Positions 19,477 to 28,089 are shown, counted from the first letter of the stretch. The stretch: 64,000 nt of DNA from Oscillospiraceae bacterium (GCA_015064785.1 SVRM01000005.1:362-64361), one strand, 5' to 3'. Made by a program: numbers and translations. Notes: a model not told the origin generated them from the sequence alone.

Positions 19477-19578
19477 GAGAATCTCCAATGTTTACAGTTC
19501 GTTTCCAGTTCGTTAAAAATTTCTCCCGACAGAGAAACAAGGATGACACGCCGCCATCCCTGTTTTCGGGTCGAATTA

Positions 19579-20133
19579 TCAGATTTCCATGATTTCCTTG
19601 GTCTTGGCTTCCGTGACCTTGTCAAGCTGCTTGACGTACTTGTCGGTCAGATCCTGGACTTCCTTTTCGGAGGCCTTCTGTTCGTCCTCGGTCATCGTGC
19701 CGGCCTTCTTCAGCTCCTTGCACTTGTCGTTTGCATCGCGGCGGATGTTGCGCAGTGCAACCTTGGCAGCTTCACCCTTCTTGGAGATGTCCTTTGCCAG
19801 TTCCTTTCTGCGTTCCTCAGTCAGCGGCGGGAAGGACAGGCGGAGCATAGAGCCGTCGTTCTGCGGATTGATGCCGAGATCGGATGCCTGAATTGCCTTT
19901 TCGATTGCCTTGAGCGTGGTCTTATCCCACGGGGTGATGGTGATGGTTCTTGCGTCCGGAACGGAGACCTGCGCAACAGCGGTGATCTGTGTGGGAGAGC
20001 CGTAGTAATCGACGGTGATCTTATCGAGGACACCGGGGTTTGCGCGTCCAGCACGGATTGACTTCAGTTCGTTTTCATATGCATCAATGCTCTTCTGCAT
20101 CTTTCTTTCATAATCTTTGACATCCAGTTTCAT
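19579..20133 (-). CDS. frr: Ribosome recycling factor
   Basis: 184 aa, canonical RRF (MKLDVKDYERKMQKSIDAYENELKSIRAGRANPGVLD...). RBS GGAGGTAT. Confidence 0.95.
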   Translation of the reverse strand: MKLDVKDYERKMQKSIDAYENELKSIRAGRANPGVLDKITVDYYGSPTQITAVAQVSVPDARTITITPWDKTTLKAIEKAIQASDLGINPQNDGSMLRLSFPPLTEERRKELAKDISKKGEAAKVALRNIRRDANDKCKELKKAGTMTEDEQKASEKEVQDLTDKYVKQLDKVTEAKTKEIMEI

Positions 20134-20278
20134 AACGGAAATACCTCCACAAATTAAAATTTCACATCCGGATGCCGACGTTCGTGCGCATCCGTGATTC
20201 TACCATATATTTTACTATGAAATCCTTGATTTGTAAACAGATTTCTGTAAATTTTTTCGGAATTTTCAAAAGATTTCA

Positions 20279-20312
20279 GAAAAAACACATCCCGCACACG
20301 CGGTACGGGATG
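20279..20312 (-). terminator. Intrinsic terminator of lipoprotein gene A
   Basis: On the minus strand a CATCCCG...CGGGATG hairpin is followed by TGTTTTTTC. It begins about 10 nt after the stop at 20322. It is duplicated at 23114-23148. Confidence 0.6.
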
Positions 20313-20321
20313 ATTTTCGGG

Positions 20322-22685
20322 TTATTGACGCTCTGCCAAACAGAGACTGACGCGGGACTGGATGATTTTCTGGGTTTCTTCCAGAGTGCGTACACCGCCG
20401 AGATAGGAATCGAGTTCTTCTGACAAAATCTCCATGACTGTCGTTTCCGCATAGGTCTGCATCGGTGTATTGAAAAACAGGGTTCGCAGCTGTTCTGTCA
20501 CATCCGGCACAAACGCATAACAGGTATAATACGGCTCTCCCCACACATTTCTGCCGCTCATGTATGTTTCCAGCTTCGGATCATCCGGCGCAAACGACCG
20601 TTCATAAGCGCGGCTCAGAATCACGGTTTCCGCACCGTTTGAGACAATGCTCGACGTATGATACGTATCCTCATTGACAAACAAATGCTGTGTTTTTCCA
20701 AGCTCCTGTTCCATCGCCTGCATCGTCGGCGGCAGACCGGTATTCTCCAGAGCCGCACTGTTCTGAATCAGATCGGACAGCAAAAACCGCAGATATTCCA
20801 TAGACCCGCGCTGAACGGGTGACGATGCGGAAATCATCAAATCCATATTCATCGAAGATAAATAACCGATCGATGTACCGTCAGACGGATAACCGCAGAA
20901 TGAAATGTCAATTCCGTCCAGTTCACGCAGTGCCGCTGCCATGGAAGCCATTCCGTCCAGCGGCAGGCACAGATACCGCAGCCGCCCCGATGTCAGATTT
21001 TCCGTAAGTTTTTCCGAGGTAATGCCGATACCGCCGATGCCCGACGGTGCAAAATAGCCCAGATCCGTATCATTGACCGAGGAAAGCGCTGCATAAAACG
21101 CAAGAAATTCACCGAACAGCGCACTGTCAAAACTGCATGTTCCGGCATCGTCGTCAATGAACGCTTCCACCGCACATTCCAACAGCATCCGCTCCTGATT
21201 GGGCTTCATCGAAAACAAAGCATCCCCCTCTGCAAGCGATTCTGCTTCCTCCAACAGCCGCTCCAATGTCAGCGCAGAACCGTCTGCATCCGGTGCGGCA
21301 GTCACCAGCGTATCGACCGAAATACGGAGGGGAATTGCATATAGTCCCGCATCCGCCGTTTCAAAAGCACTTTGCACACAGGGCAGAAGCTGATCTTTGA
21401 AATACGGCGACAAGTCAAGATATCCCTGTTTGCGGGAAATATCGCGGATTTCTTTCGCAAACGCATCACGGACAATCATGACATCCGGTGCGTTTCCGGA
21501 AAGTACATCCTCGCGGTAGGCCTGTATCTCCTCATCGCGCGTCAGATCAGTCTGATCTTCAGCGTAATTATGAACCGTTACATGGTATTCCGCATTCGTG
21601 CGGTTGAACAGTGCCGCACTGTTAGAAACGACATCCGCAAATCCACCGATCAGACCGACACGAATCTCCAGTTTTCCAGAATCCGACGGCGCTTTTTTCA
21701 GTATGGCAAGATCTCTTTTTTCAATAAACGGATCCGTCACCCATGCAAGGTATGTTTCCTCATCGAAAACATGAATCACATCCGTGTTTTCTGCTGATAA
21801 GAATGCATCGCCGTGCGCCATCAGAAGCACCGCTGTATCCGATGCCGCATCATATCCCCAGACACCGTCCCCGTCATGATAATACCGATCGTATCCGGGA
21901 CCGTATAAAATCGAATGGGACCGATCAATTCCCGACACCGCCGATAACGAAGCGTCATGAACCAGCTTCCCCCGTTCGGTGTCATAGACATGGTGTATCC
22001 CGCCCTGCGTCGCAAAATCAAACAATGTCACAACGACAGGGGAACCGGGCACCGCATGAAACCGCTGTACCCATCCGCCGATGGAATCGGCTGCCAGAAC
22101 CGTCAGATCGGAATCCAGATGATAAAACCATCCGCCGACCTGTACCGCAAAGCTGCCATCCTCCAATACCTGCACCGCACAGTCGATATTATCCGCGTTT
22201 TCGAGGCTGACCTCCGATTGGATCGTTCCGGTTTCATCCGACAAACGCACAACGGTCATCCCATCCTCCAAACTTGGCGAAAACAGCAGAAACGAACCGT
22301 TCGGCAGCAAATAAGACAGCGATGCCTGTACCGGAGCCGGATGAACCACCGTTTTGATATGCGCACCTGTGCGGTCATATATCCATGTTTCATCCCGCTT
22401 CGTTTCGGGATTGCTGTACTGAAAATGAATCTCATCTCCGAACACATGAACATACGGATGCAGATATGCAGTATCCATCATCAGATAATGATCCGCAGGT
22501 ATCGAGAGAAAAGAAAGCTCAAACCTGTTTTCGGAGCAGTAATACCGTTCTGCACCGGCGGTGTCCACCAATACCGCACGATCAGACGACAAGGCATCCG
22601 TATCATGCGTCAAATCATTCTCTCCGTGTGTACAGCCGTTCAAAAACAGAATCACAAGCACAAGTACAAAAAGATATTTCCTCAT
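20322..22685 (-). CDS. Large lipoprotein A: divergent beta-rich N-terminal half plus SBP-like C-terminal half
   Basis: 787 aa. Signal peptide plus Cys (VLVILFLNGCTHG). The C-terminal half has patches reminiscent of solute-binding proteins (NAPDVMIV, LDLSPYFKDQLLPCV, LYAIPL, CGYPSDG). It is a paralog of the ORF at 23179-25677, with a shared C-terminus KIIQSRVSLCLAERQ. It has its own RBS (GAGGAAG), promoter and terminator. Confidence 0.8.
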   Translation of the reverse strand: MRKYLFVLVLVILFLNGCTHGENDLTHDTDALSSDRAVLVDTAGAERYYCSENRFELSFLSIPADHYLMMDTAYLHPYVHVFGDEIHFQYSNPETKRDETWIYDRTGAHIKTVVHPAPVQASLSYLLPNGSFLLFSPSLEDGMTVVRLSDETGTIQSEVSLENADNIDCAVQVLEDGSFAVQVGGWFYHLDSDLTVLAADSIGGWVQRFHAVPGSPVVVTLFDFATQGGIHHVYDTERGKLVHDASLSAVSGIDRSHSILYGPGYDRYYHDGDGVWGYDAASDTAVLLMAHGDAFLSAENTDVIHVFDEETYLAWVTDPFIEKRDLAILKKAPSDSGKLEIRVGLIGGFADVVSNSAALFNRTNAEYHVTVHNYAEDQTDLTRDEEIQAYREDVLSGNAPDVMIVRDAFAKEIRDISRKQGYLDLSPYFKDQLLPCVQSAFETADAGLYAIPLRISVDTLVTAAPDADGSALTLERLLEEAESLAEGDALFSMKPNQERMLLECAVEAFIDDDAGTCSFDSALFGEFLAFYAALSSVNDTDLGYFAPSGIGGIGITSEKLTENLTSGRLRYLCLPLDGMASMAAALRELDGIDISFCGYPSDGTSIGYLSSMNMDLMISASSPVQRGSMEYLRFLLSDLIQNSAALENTGLPPTMQAMEQELGKTQHLFVNEDTYHTSSIVSNGAETVILSRAYERSFAPDDPKLETYMSGRNVWGEPYYTCYAFVPDVTEQLRTLFFNTPMQTYAETTVMEILSEELDSYLGGVRTLEETQKIIQSRVSLCLAERQ

Positions 22686-22729
22686 TTTTTCTTCCTCAGT
22701 TAAGATATTATGCTGTTATTTCTGTTATC

Positions 22730-22758
22730 ATTATATCATATTACCATTTTCACGTCAA
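22730..22758 (-). promoter_or_regulatory. Candidate sigma-A promoter of lipoprotein gene A
   Basis: On the minus strand: TTGACG (22758-22753), a 17-nt spacer, then TATAAT (22735-22730). Confidence 0.6.
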
Positions 22759-22829
22759 CAAATGACAAGCCGCTTATTTTTTTCTCCTGTTTGCACAAAT
22801 CAAACATACCGATTTTGTGAAATGAGCAC

Positions 22830-22863
22830 AAAAAAACGGCACAGCTGTTACACTGTGCCGTTT
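22830..22863 (-). terminator. Duplicated copy of the tsf intrinsic terminator
   Basis: Identical to 25824-25857: a CGGCACAG...CTGTGCCG stem followed by a T run on the minus strand. Confidence 0.6.
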
Positions 22864-22877
22864 CTGTAATACAAGAA

Positions 22878-22970
22878 TTACTTGTTGTTGACCATCTTTT
22901 CGATTTCAGCAGCAAAGTCTTCTTCTCTCTTCTGCATCTTTCTTTCATAATCTTTGACATCCAGTTTCAT
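22878..22970 (-). pseudogene. Chimeric frr'-'tsf remnant (30 codons) marking a duplication junction
   Basis: MKLDVKDYERKMQK is the first 14 codons of frr, carrying the frr RBS and promoter copy. It is fused in frame to REEDFAAEIEKMVNNK*, the last 16 codons of tsf. The junction lies in the 10-nt sequence CTCTTCTGCA (22927-22936), which is present in both parents (20090-20099 and 25921-25930). Confidence 0.8.
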
Positions 22971-23152
22971 AACGGAAATACCTCCACAAAATAAAATTTC
23001 ACATCCGGATACCGCAATCGTCCGTGTCCGGGATTCTACTATATTTTTTACTATGAAATCCTTGATTTGTAAACAGATTTCTGTAAATTTTTTGGGAATT
23101 TTCAAAAGAATCCGAAAAAACACATCCCGCACACGCGGTACGGGATGATTTT
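22927..23152. repeat. Duplicate of the frr 5' end, frr promoter/leader and lipoprotein terminator (original at 20090-20316)
   Basis: By-eye alignment shows mostly identical sequence. Differences cluster in the leader hairpin (20169-20194 vs 23004-23033), with a few substitutions elsewhere. Confidence 0.85.
23114..23148 (-). terminator. Intrinsic terminator of lipoprotein gene B
   Basis: Same CATCCCG...CGGGATG hairpin plus T run as at 20279-20312. Confidence 0.6.
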
Positions 23153-23178
23153 TGTGTGGTTGGTGGGGTCTGCATACT

Positions 23179-25677
23179 TTACTGTCTCTCTGCAAGATAG
23201 ATACTGACGCGGGACTGGATGATTTTTGTGACCTCGGTAAGCGACTTCACGCCATTCTGCCAATAGGACAGCTCCTCGGTAACAATCGCTTCCACAGTAT
23301 CGTCGCTGCCCGCTGACATATGGCAGTGATCGAGGAAGTACAGGAATGCATCGATATCCGCCTGCGGCAGTGCAACGCAGTATCCGGTCGGATCGCCGTT
23401 TTCGTCAAGCTCAAATGTCAGCGGCTCATCGGAAATGATCTCTGCCGACAGCGGTACAATCGGCGGGGTCGTGTCAAACGAAAGCGATGTCTCCCGCATC
23501 GGTGCGGCGGAGTTTCCGATATTGTGATATCGGTCTGCCGAATACGAATAATACCGGTTCTTTTCAAACAGCAGCCGGATGGCGTCCCGTGTGACAGGCA
23601 GATTCTGATGGGTATCCTCGGTCTGCCGCTCTGCATCCAGCAAAAATTGCAGAAATGCGATACTGCCCTCCGGCGCATCCGTATCGGCAAGCACTGCCGT
23701 ATAACCGAGAAGATTGACATACGCACCGCCGCCGTGATCCGACGGATAGCCGCACCAGACAAAATCCGTATCGCCGTACAGATGCCGCGCCATCATAACC
23801 TGCTCCGGCGAGTTTATCCACATATTCAAATAGGTCAGTCCGCCCTCACGCAGCCGTGCGGGAAGCGTCGGATTCGTATATCCACCGGTTCCGTCGGAAT
23901 GGGTTGTCAGATAACCGACGGTCTGATCGAGATAGGTTTCCGAAAGCTCGTCCAACAGCTCCATGACGGAACGGAATTTGTCACTGTCGTAGTCCGCCAT
24001 CCCTGCCACTGGGTCAAAGAAGTCCATGATGCCGTTGGCATACAGATACTGCTCTGCGCGCGGGTCGGAATACAGCACTTCCTTTCCGTCAAGAGACCTG
24101 ACACTGTCGATGAAGACATCCCATGTCAGAAAGTCCTCTGTTACCTCCGGCAGACAGAGAAACGTATAAATCTGCATATTCATCGGCACAGAATACAGCG
24201 CATCCCCCCATCTGACCGCATCCGTGACACAGCCGAGCATCTGATCGCCGATATACGGTGTCAGATCGAGAAAGGCATTTTTGTCATAATAGTCATCCAG
24301 CGTCACACGCGGGTCGATCATCAGCACATCCGGACGCGCTTGGTTCACCATACGGTCGGCAAGCAGCGCCTCTCGCTCCTGCTGTCCCATATTGACTACA
24401 TCAACATAATTGAGGTTGATCTCGTATTCCTCACTCTCACGGTTGAACGCAAGCACGGCGTCTCTGACCCAGTCGTTCACACCGTAATAGTCAAAGTCGA
24501 TGACCTGCTTGGGGTTTTCGTCGGGAACCATTTCGGTATGGATATAGTACAGTTTGGTATCGGTATAACGGTAATTTTCAATCCTTGATTTCGTGATATA
24601 AAAACTATGTTCATCTATCACCCATAAATTCCGATAATATAAATCTGCCGTTATGCCGCACTCCATCCAATCTGCCACTTTGGACGGCGGAAGATTATCC
24701 CGATACACGTACATACCAAGCATATCATACAAATAGAGATTTCCCTGTGTATCGGCAATCAGATTCATATGATCCTTGTCATCGGGCACACGGAACTTTT
24801 TATCTTCATAAATTCCGGTCTTCATATTCAGGATCGAACATTCCCCGACACTCCCGACAGGAAGCCATTTCATGTTACCGATATAGTCCATGAAAGATAA
24901 ATGCTTATTTCGATTGGTTAACTTCTGATATACTACCCGTCCGGCTTCCAGTGTCTGTGTTTCCCTGTGAAACAATACACTGAAAAAGCATGTTGATTCA
25001 CCACGATGCAGCAGAACAACATCTCCATCTTCGATTTCGCTTATCTTGAAATCACCGTGTGTCCAAAATTCAGGATAAACCTCGTCAAGACAGATTTCGG
25101 CACGAGGAGTACCGTCAGGCTCCGATATACCGAAATAGTACAGTGTATCTCCATCTTTTCGCTCACACCAGATCAGCGCAAAACATCCGTCAGACAGTAT
25201 ATACGCATATTCCGGCAATGCACCGCGAACCGACGGCACAGGAAGCTCCTCCATTCTCACACCATCTGCGTATGAATACAAAGATCTCTTATAACCGTTC
25301 TCCGTTTTCTGCTGCCCGTAAATAAATAATTTTCCATCTTTGACATATGTATTTGTGTAGTTTAATTCATAATCGCCGGAATACAATCCGGCAATCATTA
25401 CGATATCATCGGGCAAATCAGTTGTGATATCCACTACGGTATGCTTCAGTGTATATGGAACAAAGGATGGCACGGTTTCTGTGCTTTCCTCCGTCGCTTC
25501 CATTTCCGACAATTCTGTCATATCCGATGCATCTACCGTGTCAGCGGAATATTCTGTGACCGTTTGCTGTGTTATCACCGGTATCTTTGGCTGTTCTCCG
25601 GAACAGGAAGAAAGCAGCATACCGCACAGAATCAGCAAAATTACAACCAATCTTTCATAAACAGCATGACGCTTCAT
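23179..25677 (-). CDS. Large lipoprotein B: divergent beta-rich N-terminal half plus SBP-like C-terminal half
   Basis: The ATG at 25677 has a strong RBS (AGGAGGGAAGAGGG); the track start is at 25698. The 832-aa product has a signal peptide and lipobox (LILCGMLLSSCSG). The C-terminal half is alignable to lipoprotein A (ARPDVLMI, LDLTPYIGDQMLGCV, LYSVPM, CGYPSDHG, KIIQSRVSIYLAERQ). The N-terminal half aligns poorly. Confidence 0.8.
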   Translation of the reverse strand: MKRHAVYERLVVILLILCGMLLSSCSGEQPKIPVITQQTVTEYSADTVDASDMTELSEMEATEESTETVPSFVPYTLKHTVVDITTDLPDDIVMIAGLYSGDYELNYTNTYVKDGKLFIYGQQKTENGYKRSLYSYADGVRMEELPVPSVRGALPEYAYILSDGCFALIWCERKDGDTLYYFGISEPDGTPRAEICLDEVYPEFWTHGDFKISEIEDGDVVLLHRGESTCFFSVLFHRETQTLEAGRVVYQKLTNRNKHLSFMDYIGNMKWLPVGSVGECSILNMKTGIYEDKKFRVPDDKDHMNLIADTQGNLYLYDMLGMYVYRDNLPPSKVADWMECGITADLYYRNLWVIDEHSFYITKSRIENYRYTDTKLYYIHTEMVPDENPKQVIDFDYYGVNDWVRDAVLAFNRESEEYEINLNYVDVVNMGQQEREALLADRMVNQARPDVLMIDPRVTLDDYYDKNAFLDLTPYIGDQMLGCVTDAVRWGDALYSVPMNMQIYTFLCLPEVTEDFLTWDVFIDSVRSLDGKEVLYSDPRAEQYLYANGIMDFFDPVAGMADYDSDKFRSVMELLDELSETYLDQTVGYLTTHSDGTGGYTNPTLPARLREGGLTYLNMWINSPEQVMMARHLYGDTDFVWCGYPSDHGGGAYVNLLGYTAVLADTDAPEGSIAFLQFLLDAERQTEDTHQNLPVTRDAIRLLFEKNRYYSYSADRYHNIGNSAAPMRETSLSFDTTPPIVPLSAEIISDEPLTFELDENGDPTGYCVALPQADIDAFLYFLDHCHMSAGSDDTVEAIVTEELSYWQNGVKSLTEVTKIIQSRVSIYLAERQ

Positions 25678-25723
25678 CCCTCTTCCCTCCTGTTGCAAAT
25701 TATCTGTGGATTATCCTGTTACC

Positions 25724-25752
25724 ATTATATCATAATTCCGTCATCACGTCAA
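25724..25752 (-). promoter_or_regulatory. Candidate sigma-A promoter of lipoprotein gene B
   Basis: On the minus strand: TTGACG (25752-25747), a 17-nt spacer, then TATAAT (25729-25724). Confidence 0.6.
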
Positions 25753-25823
25753 CAAATGACAAGCCGCTTATTTTTTTCTTCTGTTTGCACAAATCAAACA
25801 TACCGATTTTGTGAAATGAGCAC

Positions 25824-25857
25824 AAAAAAACGGCACAGCTGTTACACTGTGCCGTTT
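25824..25857 (-). terminator. Intrinsic terminator of tsf
   Basis: On the minus strand a CGGCACAG...CTGTGCCG hairpin is flanked by AAA/TTT and followed by a run of seven T. It lies 15 nt after the tsf stop. Confidence 0.7.
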
Positions 25858-25871
25858 CTGTAATACAAGAA

Positions 25872-26804
25872 TTACTTGTTGTTGACCATCTTTTCGATTT
25901 CAGCAGCAAAGTCTTCTTCTCTCTTCTGCAGGCCTTCGCCCTTTTCATAGCGGAAGAAGTTTGCAACCTTGATGGAGCCGCCGAATGCCTTGCCGGAATC
26001 TGCGAGATACTTTGCAACGGATTCCTTGTTTTCAGCCTTGACATATTCCTGTTCGAGCAGGCAGTTTGCTTCGTAGAACTTGCCGAGACGACCGACAACG
26101 ATCTTTTCGAGAACCTGCTGCGGCTTCTTTGCGTTTGCAGGATCGTTTGCAAGCTGTGCGAGCAGGACAGACTTTTCTTCTTCGATAACGGAAGCGGGAA
26201 CGTCCTCACGTGCAATGTACGGAACTGCAGCCTGTGCAGCAACGTGCAGAGCGATGTTCTTCTTGACTTCTGCGTAGCCTTCGTTTGCAGCTGCAGCTTC
26301 GTCAGATTCGAACTTGACAATGACACCGATGGAGCCTTTGCCGTGGATATAGGAAACGAGGTCGCCTTCGATGATATCGAAGCGGCGGATGGACATATTT
26401 TCACCGATGGTGAAGATCATCTGCTTGAGCTGTGCTTCAACATTGGTTTCACCTTCATAGGTGCAAGCGAGAAGTGCTGCAACGTCAGCGGGCTTTTCGG
26501 TGATGATGATGTGGAGCAGCTGTGCAACGAATGCCTTGAAGGTATCGTTCTTTGCAACGAAGTCGGTTTCGGAGTTGACTTCGATGATGGCACCGACACC
26601 GTTTTCGATTGCGATGTCAACCAGACCTTCAGCGGCGATTCTGTCTGCCTTCTTTGCAGCGACAGCAATGCCTCTTTCACGAAGGATCTTGATTGCGTCG
26701 TCCATGTTGCCGTTTGCTTCTACGAGTGCGTTCTTGCACTCCATCATGCCGCAGCCTGTCTTCTTGCGAAGCTCAGCTACGTCCTTTGCAGAAATGTTAG
26801 CCAT
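25872..26804 (-). CDS. tsf: Translation elongation factor Ts
   Basis: 310 aa. The N-terminal UBA-like motif (AKDVAELRKKTGCGMMECKNALVEANGNMDDAIKILRERG) is canonical EF-Ts. Confidence 0.96.
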   Translation of the reverse strand: MANISAKDVAELRKKTGCGMMECKNALVEANGNMDDAIKILRERGIAVAAKKADRIAAEGLVDIAIENGVGAIIEVNSETDFVAKNDTFKAFVAQLLHIIITEKPADVAALLACTYEGETNVEAQLKQMIFTIGENMSIRRFDIIEGDLVSYIHGKGSIGVIVKFESDEAAAANEGYAEVKKNIALHVAAQAAVPYIAREDVPASVIEEEKSVLLAQLANDPANAKKPQQVLEKIVVGRLGKFYEANCLLEQEYVKAENKESVAKYLADSGKAFGGSIKVANFFRYEKGEGLQKREEDFAAEIEKMVNNK

Positions 26805-26839
26805 GTTTTTATCCTCCTGAATTTTGATGAAATCGAAAA

Positions 26840-27571
26840 TTATTCAGCTGCTTCTTCAGCTGCTTCAGCAGCTTCGGGAGCGTTCTGTTCGCCCTGCTTG
26901 CCTTCGACAACAGCGTCAGCGAGAACGGAAGCGATCAGCTTGATTGCGCGGATAGCGTCGTCGTTGCCGGGGATGATGTAGTCAGCATCGTCGGGATCAC
27001 AGTTGGTATCAACGATTGCAACAACCGGAATACCGAGCTTCTTTGCTTCGAGAACTGCGTTCTTTTCCTTCTTGGGGTCAACAATGAAGACTGCGGAGGG
27101 CAGACCGGGCATGGTCTTGATACCGCCGTAGTTGCGTTCGAGGTCGCCCATTTCCTTGATGAGCTTAGCAACTTCCTTCTTGGGGAGCAGGTCGAAGGTA
27201 CCGTCTTCCTTCATCTTTTCGAGGTTGGTAAGTCTTGCGATGGACTTCTTGATGGTCTTGTAGTTGGTCAGCATACCGCCGGGCCATCTTTCGTTGACAT
27301 AGTACATGCCGCAGCGTTCTGCTTCTTCCTTGATTGCGTCAGCAGCCTGCTTCTTGGTACCGACAAACAGAACGGTGCCGTTTTCCGCAGCGGTTTCGCG
27401 GACAAACATGTATGCTTCTTCAAACTTCTTAACGGTCTTCTGCAGGTCGATGATGTAGATACCGTTTCTTTCGGTGAAGATGTACTCAGCCATCTTCGGG
27501 TTCCATCTTCTGGTGTGGTGACCGAAATGGACACCAGCTTCAAGCAGCTGCTTAATGGTAATAACTGACAT
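26840..27571 (-). CDS. rpsB: 30S ribosomal protein S2
   Basis: [46 protein letters not shown]... The ATG at 27571 has RBS AGGAGGA. The track start at 27577 is a TTG extension. Confidence 0.96.
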
Positions 27572-27730
27572 TTTCAATGTCCTCCTGTATGGTTTTTTCC
27601 ACCACAGAGTCCCTCTCGTCCCGCTGACACGCAGCTTGCGTGAACCACGGAGGTACGGAATGCGGATCTGTGTGTGTATTTATTTTACCGCGGCAGAATG
27701 GCTCCGCGATACCGTTATATTTTACCACAT

Positions 27731-27760
27731 ATTATACTGCATTGCAAGCATATTTTGAAA
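27731..27760 (-). promoter_or_regulatory. Candidate promoter of rpsB-tsf
   Basis: On the minus strand: TTTCAA, an 18-nt spacer, then TATAAT. This leaves a leader of roughly 150 nt. Confidence 0.4.
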
Positions 27761-27786
27761 TTTCACAAATTATTTACAATTAAGCG

Positions 27787-28089
27787 TCAGGATTTCCGCG
27801 AAAACCATCGGTGCCGCCTGCGTCCGTCATCCACCCGGCATCTGCGGCAGTCCTCGTCGGACAGATCCGCCAGAACCGTATCCCTGCCGACACAGCGGAT
27901 CTTCTCCCACGGAATCACCATCCGTTCCCCCGAAAACACAGCCCCCCAGCCCCTCACCGACATCACATAAACCGCGCAGATACACCCCCGCTCCGTATCC
28001 AGCAGCAGATCACAGATACAGCCGATGCACGCCGCATCGCACAGCCGGATGACCTCTTTTGCGCGCAGCTCAGAAAACGAAACCGTCAT
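27787..28089 (-). CDS. ylmC: YlmC/YmxH-family sporulation protein (PRC-barrel)
   Basis: Internal ATG (28089) with RBS AAAGGGGGG. The sequence (MTVSFSELRAKEVIRLCDAACIGCICDLLLDTERGCICAVYV...IPWEKIRCVGRDTVLADL) matches the YlmC/YmxH pattern. Confidence 0.8.
   Translation of the reverse strand: MTVSFSELRAKEVIRLCDAACIGCICDLLLDTERGCICAVYVMSVRGWGAVFSGERMVIPWEKIRCVGRDTVLADLSDEDCRRCRVDDGRRRHRWFSRKS

Follow-up and report, generated by a model that had tools for sequence, protein, structure and literature searches.

Divergent surface-lipoprotein alleles in tandem at a probable tsf–frr recombination hot spot of an uncultured gut Clostridia genus

Between the translation genes tsf and frr, a 64,000-nucleotide stretch of DNA from an Oscillospiraceae bacterium (GCA_015064785.1, SVRM01000005.1:362-64361; hereafter the window) carries two head-to-tail units, each with its own gene for a predicted surface lipoprotein, LP1 or LP2. 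Comparison with related genomes makes it probable that the tsf–frr gap is a hot spot of recombination and replacement at which alleles from different lineages have been caught in tandem, and we are fairly confident that recombination joined the alleles of two lineages. A preliminary description of the window had rejected a simple tandem duplication followed by drift and put two alternatives in its place. The rejection was borne out. The second alternative, a hot spot that brings together lipoprotein alleles from different lineages, is supported by a survey of the site in related genomes, by flanks that are linked to haplotype and by the mosaic make-up of LP2.

Every gene of the region lies on the minus strand, and uppS, cdsA and dxr come after frr. 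The features on which the argument draws are as follows.

27577-26840, minus strand: rpsB (open reading frame (ORF) list)
25872..26804, minus strand: tsf, encoding EF-Ts, intact (ORF list; Pfam EF_TS on the called gene)
25824..25855, minus strand: tsf terminator, a hairpin and T-run, ACGGCACAGTGTAACAGCTGTGCCGTTTTTTT, unit 2 copy (pattern search)
25724..25752, minus strand: LP2 promoter, TTGACG, 17-nt spacer and TG-extended TATAAT (promoter scan, 11/12 matches)
23179..25677, minus strand: LP2 lipoprotein gene, 832 residues from the ATG start
23114..23147, minus strand: LP2 intrinsic terminator (terminator scan)
23046..23073, minus strand: pseudo-copy of the frr promoter, with a −10 element (23046-23051) of TAAAAA and not TAAAAT (alignments)
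23005..23032, minus strand: pseudo-copy of the frr leader hairpin, of the LP2-haplotype type, with a weakened fold (alignment, folding)
22878..22970, minus strand: fusion ORF frr'::'tsf, 30 codons (ORF translation, alignment, pattern search)
22830..22861, minus strand: second copy of the tsf terminator, in unit 1, identical to the first (pattern search)
22730..22758, minus strand: LP1 promoter, with the hexamers of the LP2 promoter (promoter scan)
20322..22685, minus strand: LP1 lipoprotein gene, 787 residues (ORF list)
20279..20312, minus strand: LP1 intrinsic terminator, identical to the LP2 terminator copy (terminator scan, pattern search)
20209..20237, minus strand: functional frr promoter, TTTACA, 17-nt spacer and TAAAAT (promoter scan)
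20168..20196, minus strand: frr leader hairpin, the same as the hairpin of the related locus L006 (alignment, folding)
19579..20133, minus strand: frr, encoding ribosome recycling factor, intact (ORF list; Pfam RRF on orthologues)

The units occupy 25930-22927 (unit 2, with LP2) and 22936-20090 (unit 1, with LP1), and a new junction joins the distal end of one to the proximal start of the other. A repeat search paired 22722-22936 with 25716-25930 (215 nt, 97% identity), 20090-20177 with 22927-23014 (88 nt, 98%) and 20182-20284 with 23018-23120 (103 nt, 89%). When the two units were globally aligned and read in 60-column windows, the first 180 columns, which make up the upstream flank, were 98-100% identical; the coding bodies showed 27-58% identity per window and about 40% DNA identity overall; and the last ~240 columns, the downstream flank, were 82-100% identical. 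The windowed alignment thus confirms the contrast between near-identical flanks and strongly diverged coding bodies from which the preliminary description had set out. Its by-eye count of one mismatch in a roughly 186-nt upstream core (22936-22751 against 25930-25745) is exact, the single difference being G at 22786 against A at 25780. Downstream, where the flanks are 93.4% identical across 228 nt, it had placed most substitutions in one leader hairpin, and ~10 of the ~18 differences do fall within the frr-leader hairpin (20196-20168 against 23032-23005). Within the LP promoter, identity between the units falls off in the interval from the −35 to the −10 element. Besides LP1 and LP2, no other LP copy or fragment was found in the 64-kb window.

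The unit boundaries are marked by a 10-nt sequence, TGCAGAAGAG, which an exact pattern search located three times: at the tsf 3′ end (25930-25921), at the inner junction (22936-22927) and in frr codons 11-14 (20099-20090). Identity between the units begins and stops exactly at these three copies, which coincide with the boundaries given in the preliminary description. The sequence is one of only four stretches of at least 10 nt that tsf and frr have in common. At the inner junction, the joint sits 59 nt from the tsf stop codon and fuses frr codons 1-14 in frame to the last 16 tsf codons, which creates the ORF MKLDVKDYERKMQKREEDFAAEIEKMVNNK. The 93-nt fusion segment, which is functionless, is 100% identical to its tsf and frr sources. 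To judge from these features, the joint bears the signature of an illegitimate crossover at microhomology. Neither the microhomology junction nor the fusion ORF formed part of the hot-spot alternative as first proposed.

A tandem of this kind could also arise in silico, if co-existing strains with tsf-LP1-frr and tsf-LP2-frr arrangements were falsely stitched together. Metagenome contigs do break inside the repeated flanks (L001 ends at 25781, L002 ends at 25831, L004 starts at 22913 and L005 spans 25907-22817), and both allele types circulate in related populations. However, a false join needs an overlap at least as long as the assembler k-mer, not 10 nt, and assembler k-mers are longer than that; moreover, frr'::'tsf is novel sequence that must exist in the reads. 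Two contigs from different JGI metagenomes, L003 (window 23512-20001) and L005, match the window at 100% identity and run through the junction into unique sequence on either side, and the 30-residue ORF was called as a gene in both. An exact cluster look-up recorded the fusion peptide on six contigs, in JGI/IMG and ENA, the longest of them 74 kb. The support for the junction is in the form of assembled contigs; because L003 and L005 cross it and the peptide recurs on six contigs, the tandem is not an artefact of a single assembly, and we consider false stitching extremely improbable.

We surveyed the tsf–frr gap in related genomes, the comparators being metagenome contigs or metagenome-assembled genomes (MAGs). 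In L006 (97% nucleotide identity to the window) and L007 (87-92%), a single LP1-type gene lies between tsf and frr; these LP1 orthologues, P0001 (97%) and P0002 (86%), sit there alone. L173 has a single LP2-type gene between tsf and frr, and in L013 (Frr 94% identical) an LP2-type gene adjoins frr. Two LP2-type genes, 63% and 81% identical to LP2, are present in L009, where there is no fusion ORF and the inter-gene spacer is a different one, with its own promoter and a small Cys-rich ORF. L010 and L011 (Frr 96-97%) carry pairs of LP genes, and L012 (Frr 94%) carries a third allele type, 31-42% identical to LP2. Finally, the site is empty in L014 (Frr 90%; yak-colon MAG JAGBZV010000156), in which tsf is followed by 314 bp and then frr (1362-1676); the frr promoter and leader are kept in this empty site, and no trace of a cassette promoter or terminator was found in it. 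The allele survey that the preliminary description had called for thus finds LP1-type only, LP2-type only, other pairs, a third type and nothing at the same site.

A set of 80 genome loci retrieved by means of Frr included only three from this genus, L012, L013 and L014, and the others have no LP homologue near frr; no LP homologue was found at the tsf–frr site in Clostridia with Frr identity of ≤74%. In a metagenome scan with Frr, the best match was 73% identical and none was from the genus, among the matches listed. In more distant Clostridia, the gap is occupied by pyrH, as seen in L024 (8928-10001) and L030 (9093-10001), the only two that were translated. No pyrH was found in the gap of the window (25872-20133) or anywhere else in its 64 kb. 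In this genus, a lipoprotein cassette, or nothing (L014), takes the place of pyrH between tsf and frr.

Two smaller features accompany some of these loci. A small secreted Cys-rich protein with the motifs CDCG, CC, CPEC and C..C is encoded directly upstream of some LP2-type genes (L009 9609-9983, 124 residues; L172 1554-1895, 113 residues); its gene has a promoter to itself, and the window lacks it. In addition, tandem 22-nt repeats, AAGTGA[AG]GCCGTGC[CT]GAAACGT, are found in 1-5 copies 3′ of the lipoprotein stop, where they repeat the last codons and the stop; copy number varies by locus (L010 908-951 and 3687-3752; L011 136-200 and 2827-2848; L013 984-1005).

The flanks of the two units were next compared with those of related loci. 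On the frr side of LP1, the flank (D1) matches L006 at 99.5% identity. The one that follows LP2 (D2) is 96.3% identical to L009 and 95.0% to L173, and D1 and D2 are only 93.4% identical to each other. The sole upstream difference follows the same division: the G at 22786, beside LP1, is as in L006, and the A at 25780, beside LP2, is as in L009. In the last ~270 nt of tsf, all six informative sites (26043-25780) match L009 and not L006. Judged by their variants, the flanks of each unit match a different external haplotype, those of LP1 matching L006 and those of LP2 matching L009/L173. The upstream flank is only ~79% identical to L007, L172 and L173, so it is not slowly evolving; since it changes fast between species, its near-identity inside this genome implies recent shared ancestry.

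These comparisons bear directly on an old tandem duplication, in which the bodies diverged by diversifying selection and the flanks were held uniform by gene conversion or purifying selection, and on the closely related first alternative of the preliminary description, which combined homogenisation of the flanks by conversion with diversifying selection on the lipoproteins. As such an origin would predict, LP1 and LP2 are homologous along their full length and have promoter hexamers, terminator and C-terminal motif in common, and conversion could account for the last ~85 nt of the inner flank, which equal the outer copy except at one single-nucleotide polymorphism (SNP). However, each downstream flank is nearer to the orthologous flank in another genome than to its partner in this one, the sole upstream SNP is haplotype-linked, and related genomes hold either allele alone at the same site. 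Segments of LP2 are 99.7-100% identical to genes in other genomes. An old duplication kept uniform is also unlikely in view of the 93-nt fusion: though functionless, it still matches its sources at 100% identity, and yet related species are ~20% apart in the upstream flank. Our suggestion is instead that two haplotypes contributed arms that they had in common, which would account for the near-identity of the flanks with no homogenisation after an ancient duplication.

Selection on the alleles also weighs against a diversification-driven origin. In all close allele pairs, the Nei–Gojobori ratio of non-synonymous to synonymous substitution rates (dN/dS), calculated for the whole gene and by domain, was 0.13-0.55; the corresponding values for tsf and frr were 0.05-0.15. 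For LP1 against LP2, the comparison that the preliminary description had in mind, synonymous sites are saturated (proportion of synonymous differences, pS, 0.69; dS 1.9) and dN/dS is uninformative, so the close pairs were used in its place. At the scale of the whole gene or whole domain, as distinct from single sites, the lipoprotein genes are under relaxed constraint, and since whole-gene dN/dS is 0.13-0.55 there is no gene-wide positive selection. Flank homogenisation coupled to diversifying selection is thus not supported, and we regard an old duplication as very unlikely. To explain how allele diversity is kept, we favour frequency-dependent selection on an exposed protein, exerted by phage or host antibody, or differences in glycan specificity.

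The LP2 gene itself records exchange between lineages. Sliding identity and mismatch counts divided it into three segments with different nearest relatives.

25760-25441: nearest to the first gene of L009 (LPa), with 0/244 mismatches and a 339-nt identical run; GC 0.45
25440-24741: nearest to L172 (GCA_054274835.1), with 2/712 mismatches; GC 0.43
24740-23179: nearest to L173 and the second gene of L009 (LPb), with 50-60/1562 mismatches; GC 0.51

LP2 therefore reads as a three-parent mosaic with sharp breakpoints, a feature that the preliminary description had not picked up. From the consensus and the N-domain alignments, the breakpoints coincide with the conserved protein blocks ..VPYTLKHTVVD.. 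and ..DKDHM..YRDNLPP.KVADW... Within the C-terminal segment, which otherwise matches at 97-100%, a patch of ~180 nt (~24066-23890) is 80-83% identical to every sampled relative, which suggests a fourth, unsampled parental allele. Other alleles show comparable discordance: P0003 and P0008 are 38% identical in the N-terminal domain and 94% identical in the C-terminal domain, and the LP1 gene of L006 ends in an LP2-type 3′ tail.

Synonymous divergence from L173 is far from even, with dS values of 0.88 for uppS, 0.73 for cdsA and 0.72 for dxr, and of 0.24 for frr, 0.092 for tsf and 0.079 for the LP2 C-terminal domain. L009 resembles the window at 75-90% identity across 4.5 kb of upstream housekeeping DNA, but over the stretch that runs from tsf into the 5′ end of the LP gene the two agree at 99-100%. 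For L013, identity is 95% in the C-terminal domain of the LP, against 85% in the flank beside it and 83% in uppS. These patterns suggest that alleles have been exchanged between strains and, apparently, between species. Within tsf (26043-26523), the SNP pattern relative to L006, L009 and L007 alternates in blocks, which suggests that recombination tracts run through the gene. As such tracts appear to cross them, we infer that tsf and frr are poor strain markers here.

Taken together, the comparisons outline a mechanism, which we put forward with the reservations set out below. A cassette comprising a promoter, a gene for a surface lipoprotein of ~800 residues and a terminator would be swapped at the tsf–frr gap in this uncultured gut Clostridia genus. 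The lipoprotein alleles, presumably very old and very different, would be exchanged by homologous recombination, with crossovers in the conserved arms (tsf and its terminator on one side; the frr promoter, leader and gene on the other), and further crossovers in short conserved blocks within the gene would give rise to mosaic alleles. In the window, an LP2-type haplotype, with parts nearest to L009, L172 and L173, and an LP1-type haplotype, nearest to L006, would both have been kept, with no replacement. Their join would be an illegitimate crossover at TGCAGAAGAG that left the frr'::'tsf fusion ORF. The event would resemble homology-facilitated illegitimate recombination (HFIR), in which one end of the incoming DNA pairs in tsf or frr and the other end joins at microhomology, with a product akin to a natural merodiploid. 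A homologous anchor would have been available, because the tsf 3′ end and the upstream flank beside LP2 are 100% identical to L009 and 99% identical to L006. A single homology-anchored illegitimate insertion of this type is the likeliest route, although our confidence in it stays a little short of even; how the DNA entered, and in which sequence the steps took place, is inferred. Once in place, direct repeats of 215 nt and 228 nt would let RecA resolve the tandem to one allele or the other.

Two points weigh against this account. The first concerns the last ~85 nt of the inner flank, consisting of the Shine–Dalgarno region and frr', which carry the variant AAAGATTAT of the window and L006; L009 and L173 carry AAGGATTTT. 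Because the inner frr' is AAAGATTAT while the sampled LP2-type haplotypes have AAGGATTTT, an HFIR-like insertion would call either for a donor haplotype outside the present sample or for a further crossover or conversion event, and the order of events is open to doubt. The ~85 nt could have been converted locally. The second point is that a comparator contig that switches genome inside the conserved tsf or frr could mimic cross-species sharing in L009 and L173. L013 is less exposed to this problem, because its switch falls at the LP 3′ end.

The chimeric inner flank, with its LP2-type hairpin and window/L006-type Shine–Dalgarno region and frr', is accounted for by a two-step origin. In such a course, the LP1 unit would have been duplicated in tandem at microhomology in an L006-like genome, and an imported LP2 haplotype would then have taken the place of the first copy through ordinary homologous recombination; the crossovers would lie at about 26050-26074 within tsf and at about 23005-22995 within the inner frr leader. 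It also explains why the tsf SNP pattern is L006-like at 26255-26074 and L009-like at 26043-25780, a switch that is compatible with a crossover at ~26050-26074, and a microhomology junction is the expected mark of a spontaneous tandem duplication. Yet the pattern further upstream in tsf is mixed, and the crossover point is not clean. The intermediate would have contained 2.85-kb perfect repeats and would be expected to be short-lived, RecA-dependent duplication loss making long perfect tandem repeats transient; the downstream crossover had only ~90 nt of homology before the junction; and none of the loci examined carried LP1 in two copies. We therefore view the two-step origin as a serious but rather unlikely alternative to a single HFIR-like insertion.

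A cassette-like unit at a fixed site, in arrays of one or two genes, might also be the work of a dedicated diversification or mobility system, such as site-specific cassette insertion, antigenic variation from silent cassettes or a diversity-generating retroelement. The unit, however, ends inside tsf and frr coding sequence at chance microhomology and not at a recombinase site, and only housekeeping genes lie nearby (rpsB, tsf, frr, uppS, cdsA, dxr, rseP, ispG and polC). No integrase, transposase or reverse transcriptase family was present in the precomputed Pfam annotation of the called neighbours, with no dedicated search across the window; about half of the L001 genes upstream of rpsB have no Pfam match, which makes the integrase and transposase negative weaker on that side. 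The window holds no further LP copies in its 64 kb, LP1 and LP2 both have full promoters, and no template/variable repeat pair was found in 18-28 kb. Such a system is, in our estimation, most improbable as the source of the tandem.

The window also holds a second set of frr control elements. The promoter scan detects the real frr promoter (20237-20209) and not the pseudo-copy, and the functional promoter is conserved in all loci of the genus, including the empty site L014. The 5′ leader of frr opens with a hairpin whose lower stem is conserved and whose upper stem varies with compensatory changes across the genus, at −11 to −18 kcal/mol (leaders compared: window, L007, L010, L012, L013, L014 and L173). 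In a scan of 19500-27800, the leader matched no Rfam family; the hairpin may be a 5′ stabiliser or regulatory element. The real leader folds at −15.9 kcal/mol and the L173 leader at −14.1, and the pseudo-copy folds at −10.1 with a z-score of −0.17. Relative to L009 and L173, the pseudo-hairpin has one mismatch, a stem-breaking G-to-A change. With 2-3 substitutions to go on, the changes in the pseudo-promoter and pseudo-hairpin are compatible with the possible decay of a useless copy under relaxed selection. The sole match in the Rfam scan, Sarbecovirus-5UTR at 25770-25911 on the plus strand (E 0.008; 21 bits against a gathering score of 150), was rejected as a chance match on the AT-rich flank, far below the gathering score.

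LP1 and LP2 themselves are distant relatives. They are 28% identical over their C-terminal 448 residues (BLASTP, E 2e-38), and the shared patches listed in the preliminary description, CGYPSD, LDL(S/T)PY, (A/R)PDV and KIIQSRVS..LAERQ, all lie within this alignment. Its judgement that the N-terminal halves are essentially unrelated did not hold, as profile–profile alignment with hhalign detects remote homology between them (258 columns, probability 95.8%, E 8e-9, 15% identity). Because the N-terminal halves align in this way, the two proteins can be regarded, from their sequences, as full-length, deeply diverged homologues with the same two-domain plan. Both have a lipobox (LP1, ...VILFLNGC, Cys18; LP2, ...GMLLSSC, Cys25), read directly from the sequence with no dedicated predictor, and its cysteine is nearly invariant in the family alignment. 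With the same promoter in front of each gene, both LP1 and LP2 are probably expressed.

In its C-terminal half, LP2 exceeds the Pfam cut-offs of two solute-binding families, SBP_bac_8 (28.5 bits; cut-off 27) and SBP_bac_1 (27.3 bits; cut-off 26), and LP1 alone stays below threshold (16.8 bits; cut-off 26). The family profile matches the sugar-binding protein CbpC of Clostridium thermocellum in PDB (E 1.3e-12). An AlphaFold model of LP2 (predicted local distance difference test score, pLDDT, 79) has a MalE-like C-terminal half, and its top Foldseek matches are CbpC, Lmo0181 and MalE proteins, with E values of 1e-12 to 1e-15 and target-normalised template-modelling (TM) scores of 0.5-0.6. Modelled alone, the ~320 N-terminal residues form an all-beta domain (pLDDT 84; predicted TM score 0.85), whose best Foldseek matches, at weak TM scores of 0.3-0.44, are beta-propellers (GH62 enzymes, WD40 proteins, BamB, BtuG and sialidases). 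Modelling covered LP2 and the LP2-type N-terminal domain, and the fold of LP1 is assigned by homology to LP2. The predicted architecture of both proteins, at ~800 residues, is a lipobox, an N-terminal beta-propeller and a C-terminal MalE-like sugar-binding domain.

An exhaustive profile search (E ≤ 1e-30) returned 3,160 clusters at 50% identity, many of them full-length at ~750-860 residues. The few with names are Clostridia proteins labelled 'hypothetical protein' or 'extracellular solute-binding protein'. LP1 and LP2 gave nothing meaningful in scans against NCBIfam, PHROGs and PADLOC, and a literature search found no papers on propeller lipoproteins with a solute-binding protein (SBP) domain in Clostridia. 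The propeller–SBP lipoprotein family is thus large and uncharacterised. No ATP-binding cassette (ABC) permease or ATPase genes are adjacent to the lipoprotein genes in the window or at any related locus examined, and a distant partner is possible. In exact look-ups, LP2 is on record with the ATG start at 25677 and not with a TTG start, and the Frr of the window has no exact record.

The locus offers a natural record of how a second, very different surface-protein allele can be gained without losing the first, with all landmarks still readable. It places a probable recombination hot spot beside essential translation genes in an uncultured gut Clostridia genus and flags the propeller–SBP lipoprotein family as a likely determinant of strain-level variation. 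Short-read assemblies tend to fragment or under-report tandems of this kind, breaking at the repeated flanks. A broader proposition, which we consider doubtful, is that the cassette is an allele pool for an exposed lipoprotein, shared genus-wide and across species and kept diverse through frequency-dependent selection by phage or host immunoglobulin A, with tandem merodiploids as regular intermediates in which a lineage would try a new allele and later discard one of the two. If true, it would amount to a previously undescribed route of surface variation in commensal gut Clostridia.

Several known systems resemble parts of this arrangement. As proteins, LP1 and LP2 are closest to the family 1 SBPs of carbohydrate ABC importers, such as MalE and the C. 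thermocellum proteins CbpB and CbpC, with which they share a MalE-like fold over the C-terminal ~430 residues, weak but significant similarity and lipoprotein anchoring. They differ from these SBPs in their extra ~320-residue N-terminal beta-propeller, in the lack of adjoining permease and ATPase genes, which leaves a transport role putative, and in their extreme allelic diversity.

As an event, the tandem is most readily likened to HFIR, a process described in Acinetobacter, Streptococcus pneumoniae and Pseudomonas stutzeri and invoked for Rhs orphan arrays. The likeness, drawn from sequence, lies in a candidate homology anchor on one side and a short microhomology joint on the other, in the retention of the resident allele and in an array built up at a conserved site; the route of DNA entry and the event's direction are not part of the match, and the two-step route is also in play. 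HFIR has been proposed for array building at a conserved locus in the case of Vibrio cholerae type VI secretion system effector–immunity arrays (PMC5361080). Unlike in HFIR arrays, the retained gene here is a complete, promoter-bearing allele rather than an orphan fragment or immunity gene, and the joint, which falls between two essential translation genes, has duplicated the ends of both.

Spontaneous tandem duplications at microhomology, and the merodiploids of laboratory two-step allelic exchange, have the same head-to-tail units with a novel junction at a short repeat, and the same direct-repeat flanks, resolvable to either single-copy state. A spontaneous duplication derives from one parental sequence, and its copies should be nearly alike from end to end if young and evenly diverged if old, whereas the copies here are non-identical (28% protein identity), and two different parental haplotypes are therefore required at some step.

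The process itself is already known, from replacement-type hypervariable loci, mosaic surface genes and microhomology-joined arrays; the host and the protein family are unstudied. Replacement-type loci include the pneumococcal capsule locus between dexB and aliA, and mosaic surface genes include pspA/pspC and the neisserial tbpB and opa. The tsf–frr site differs from loci of the capsule, pspA and tbpB type in its host, an uncultured commensal Clostridia from the guts of ruminants and other herbivores; in its cargo, a single uncharacterised propeller–SBP lipoprotein; in its flanks, tsf and frr, where pyrH usually sits; and in a gene-wide dN/dS below 1. With those loci it shares a fixed site, deeply divergent alleles, exchange through conserved flanks and mosaics that break sharply at conserved blocks.

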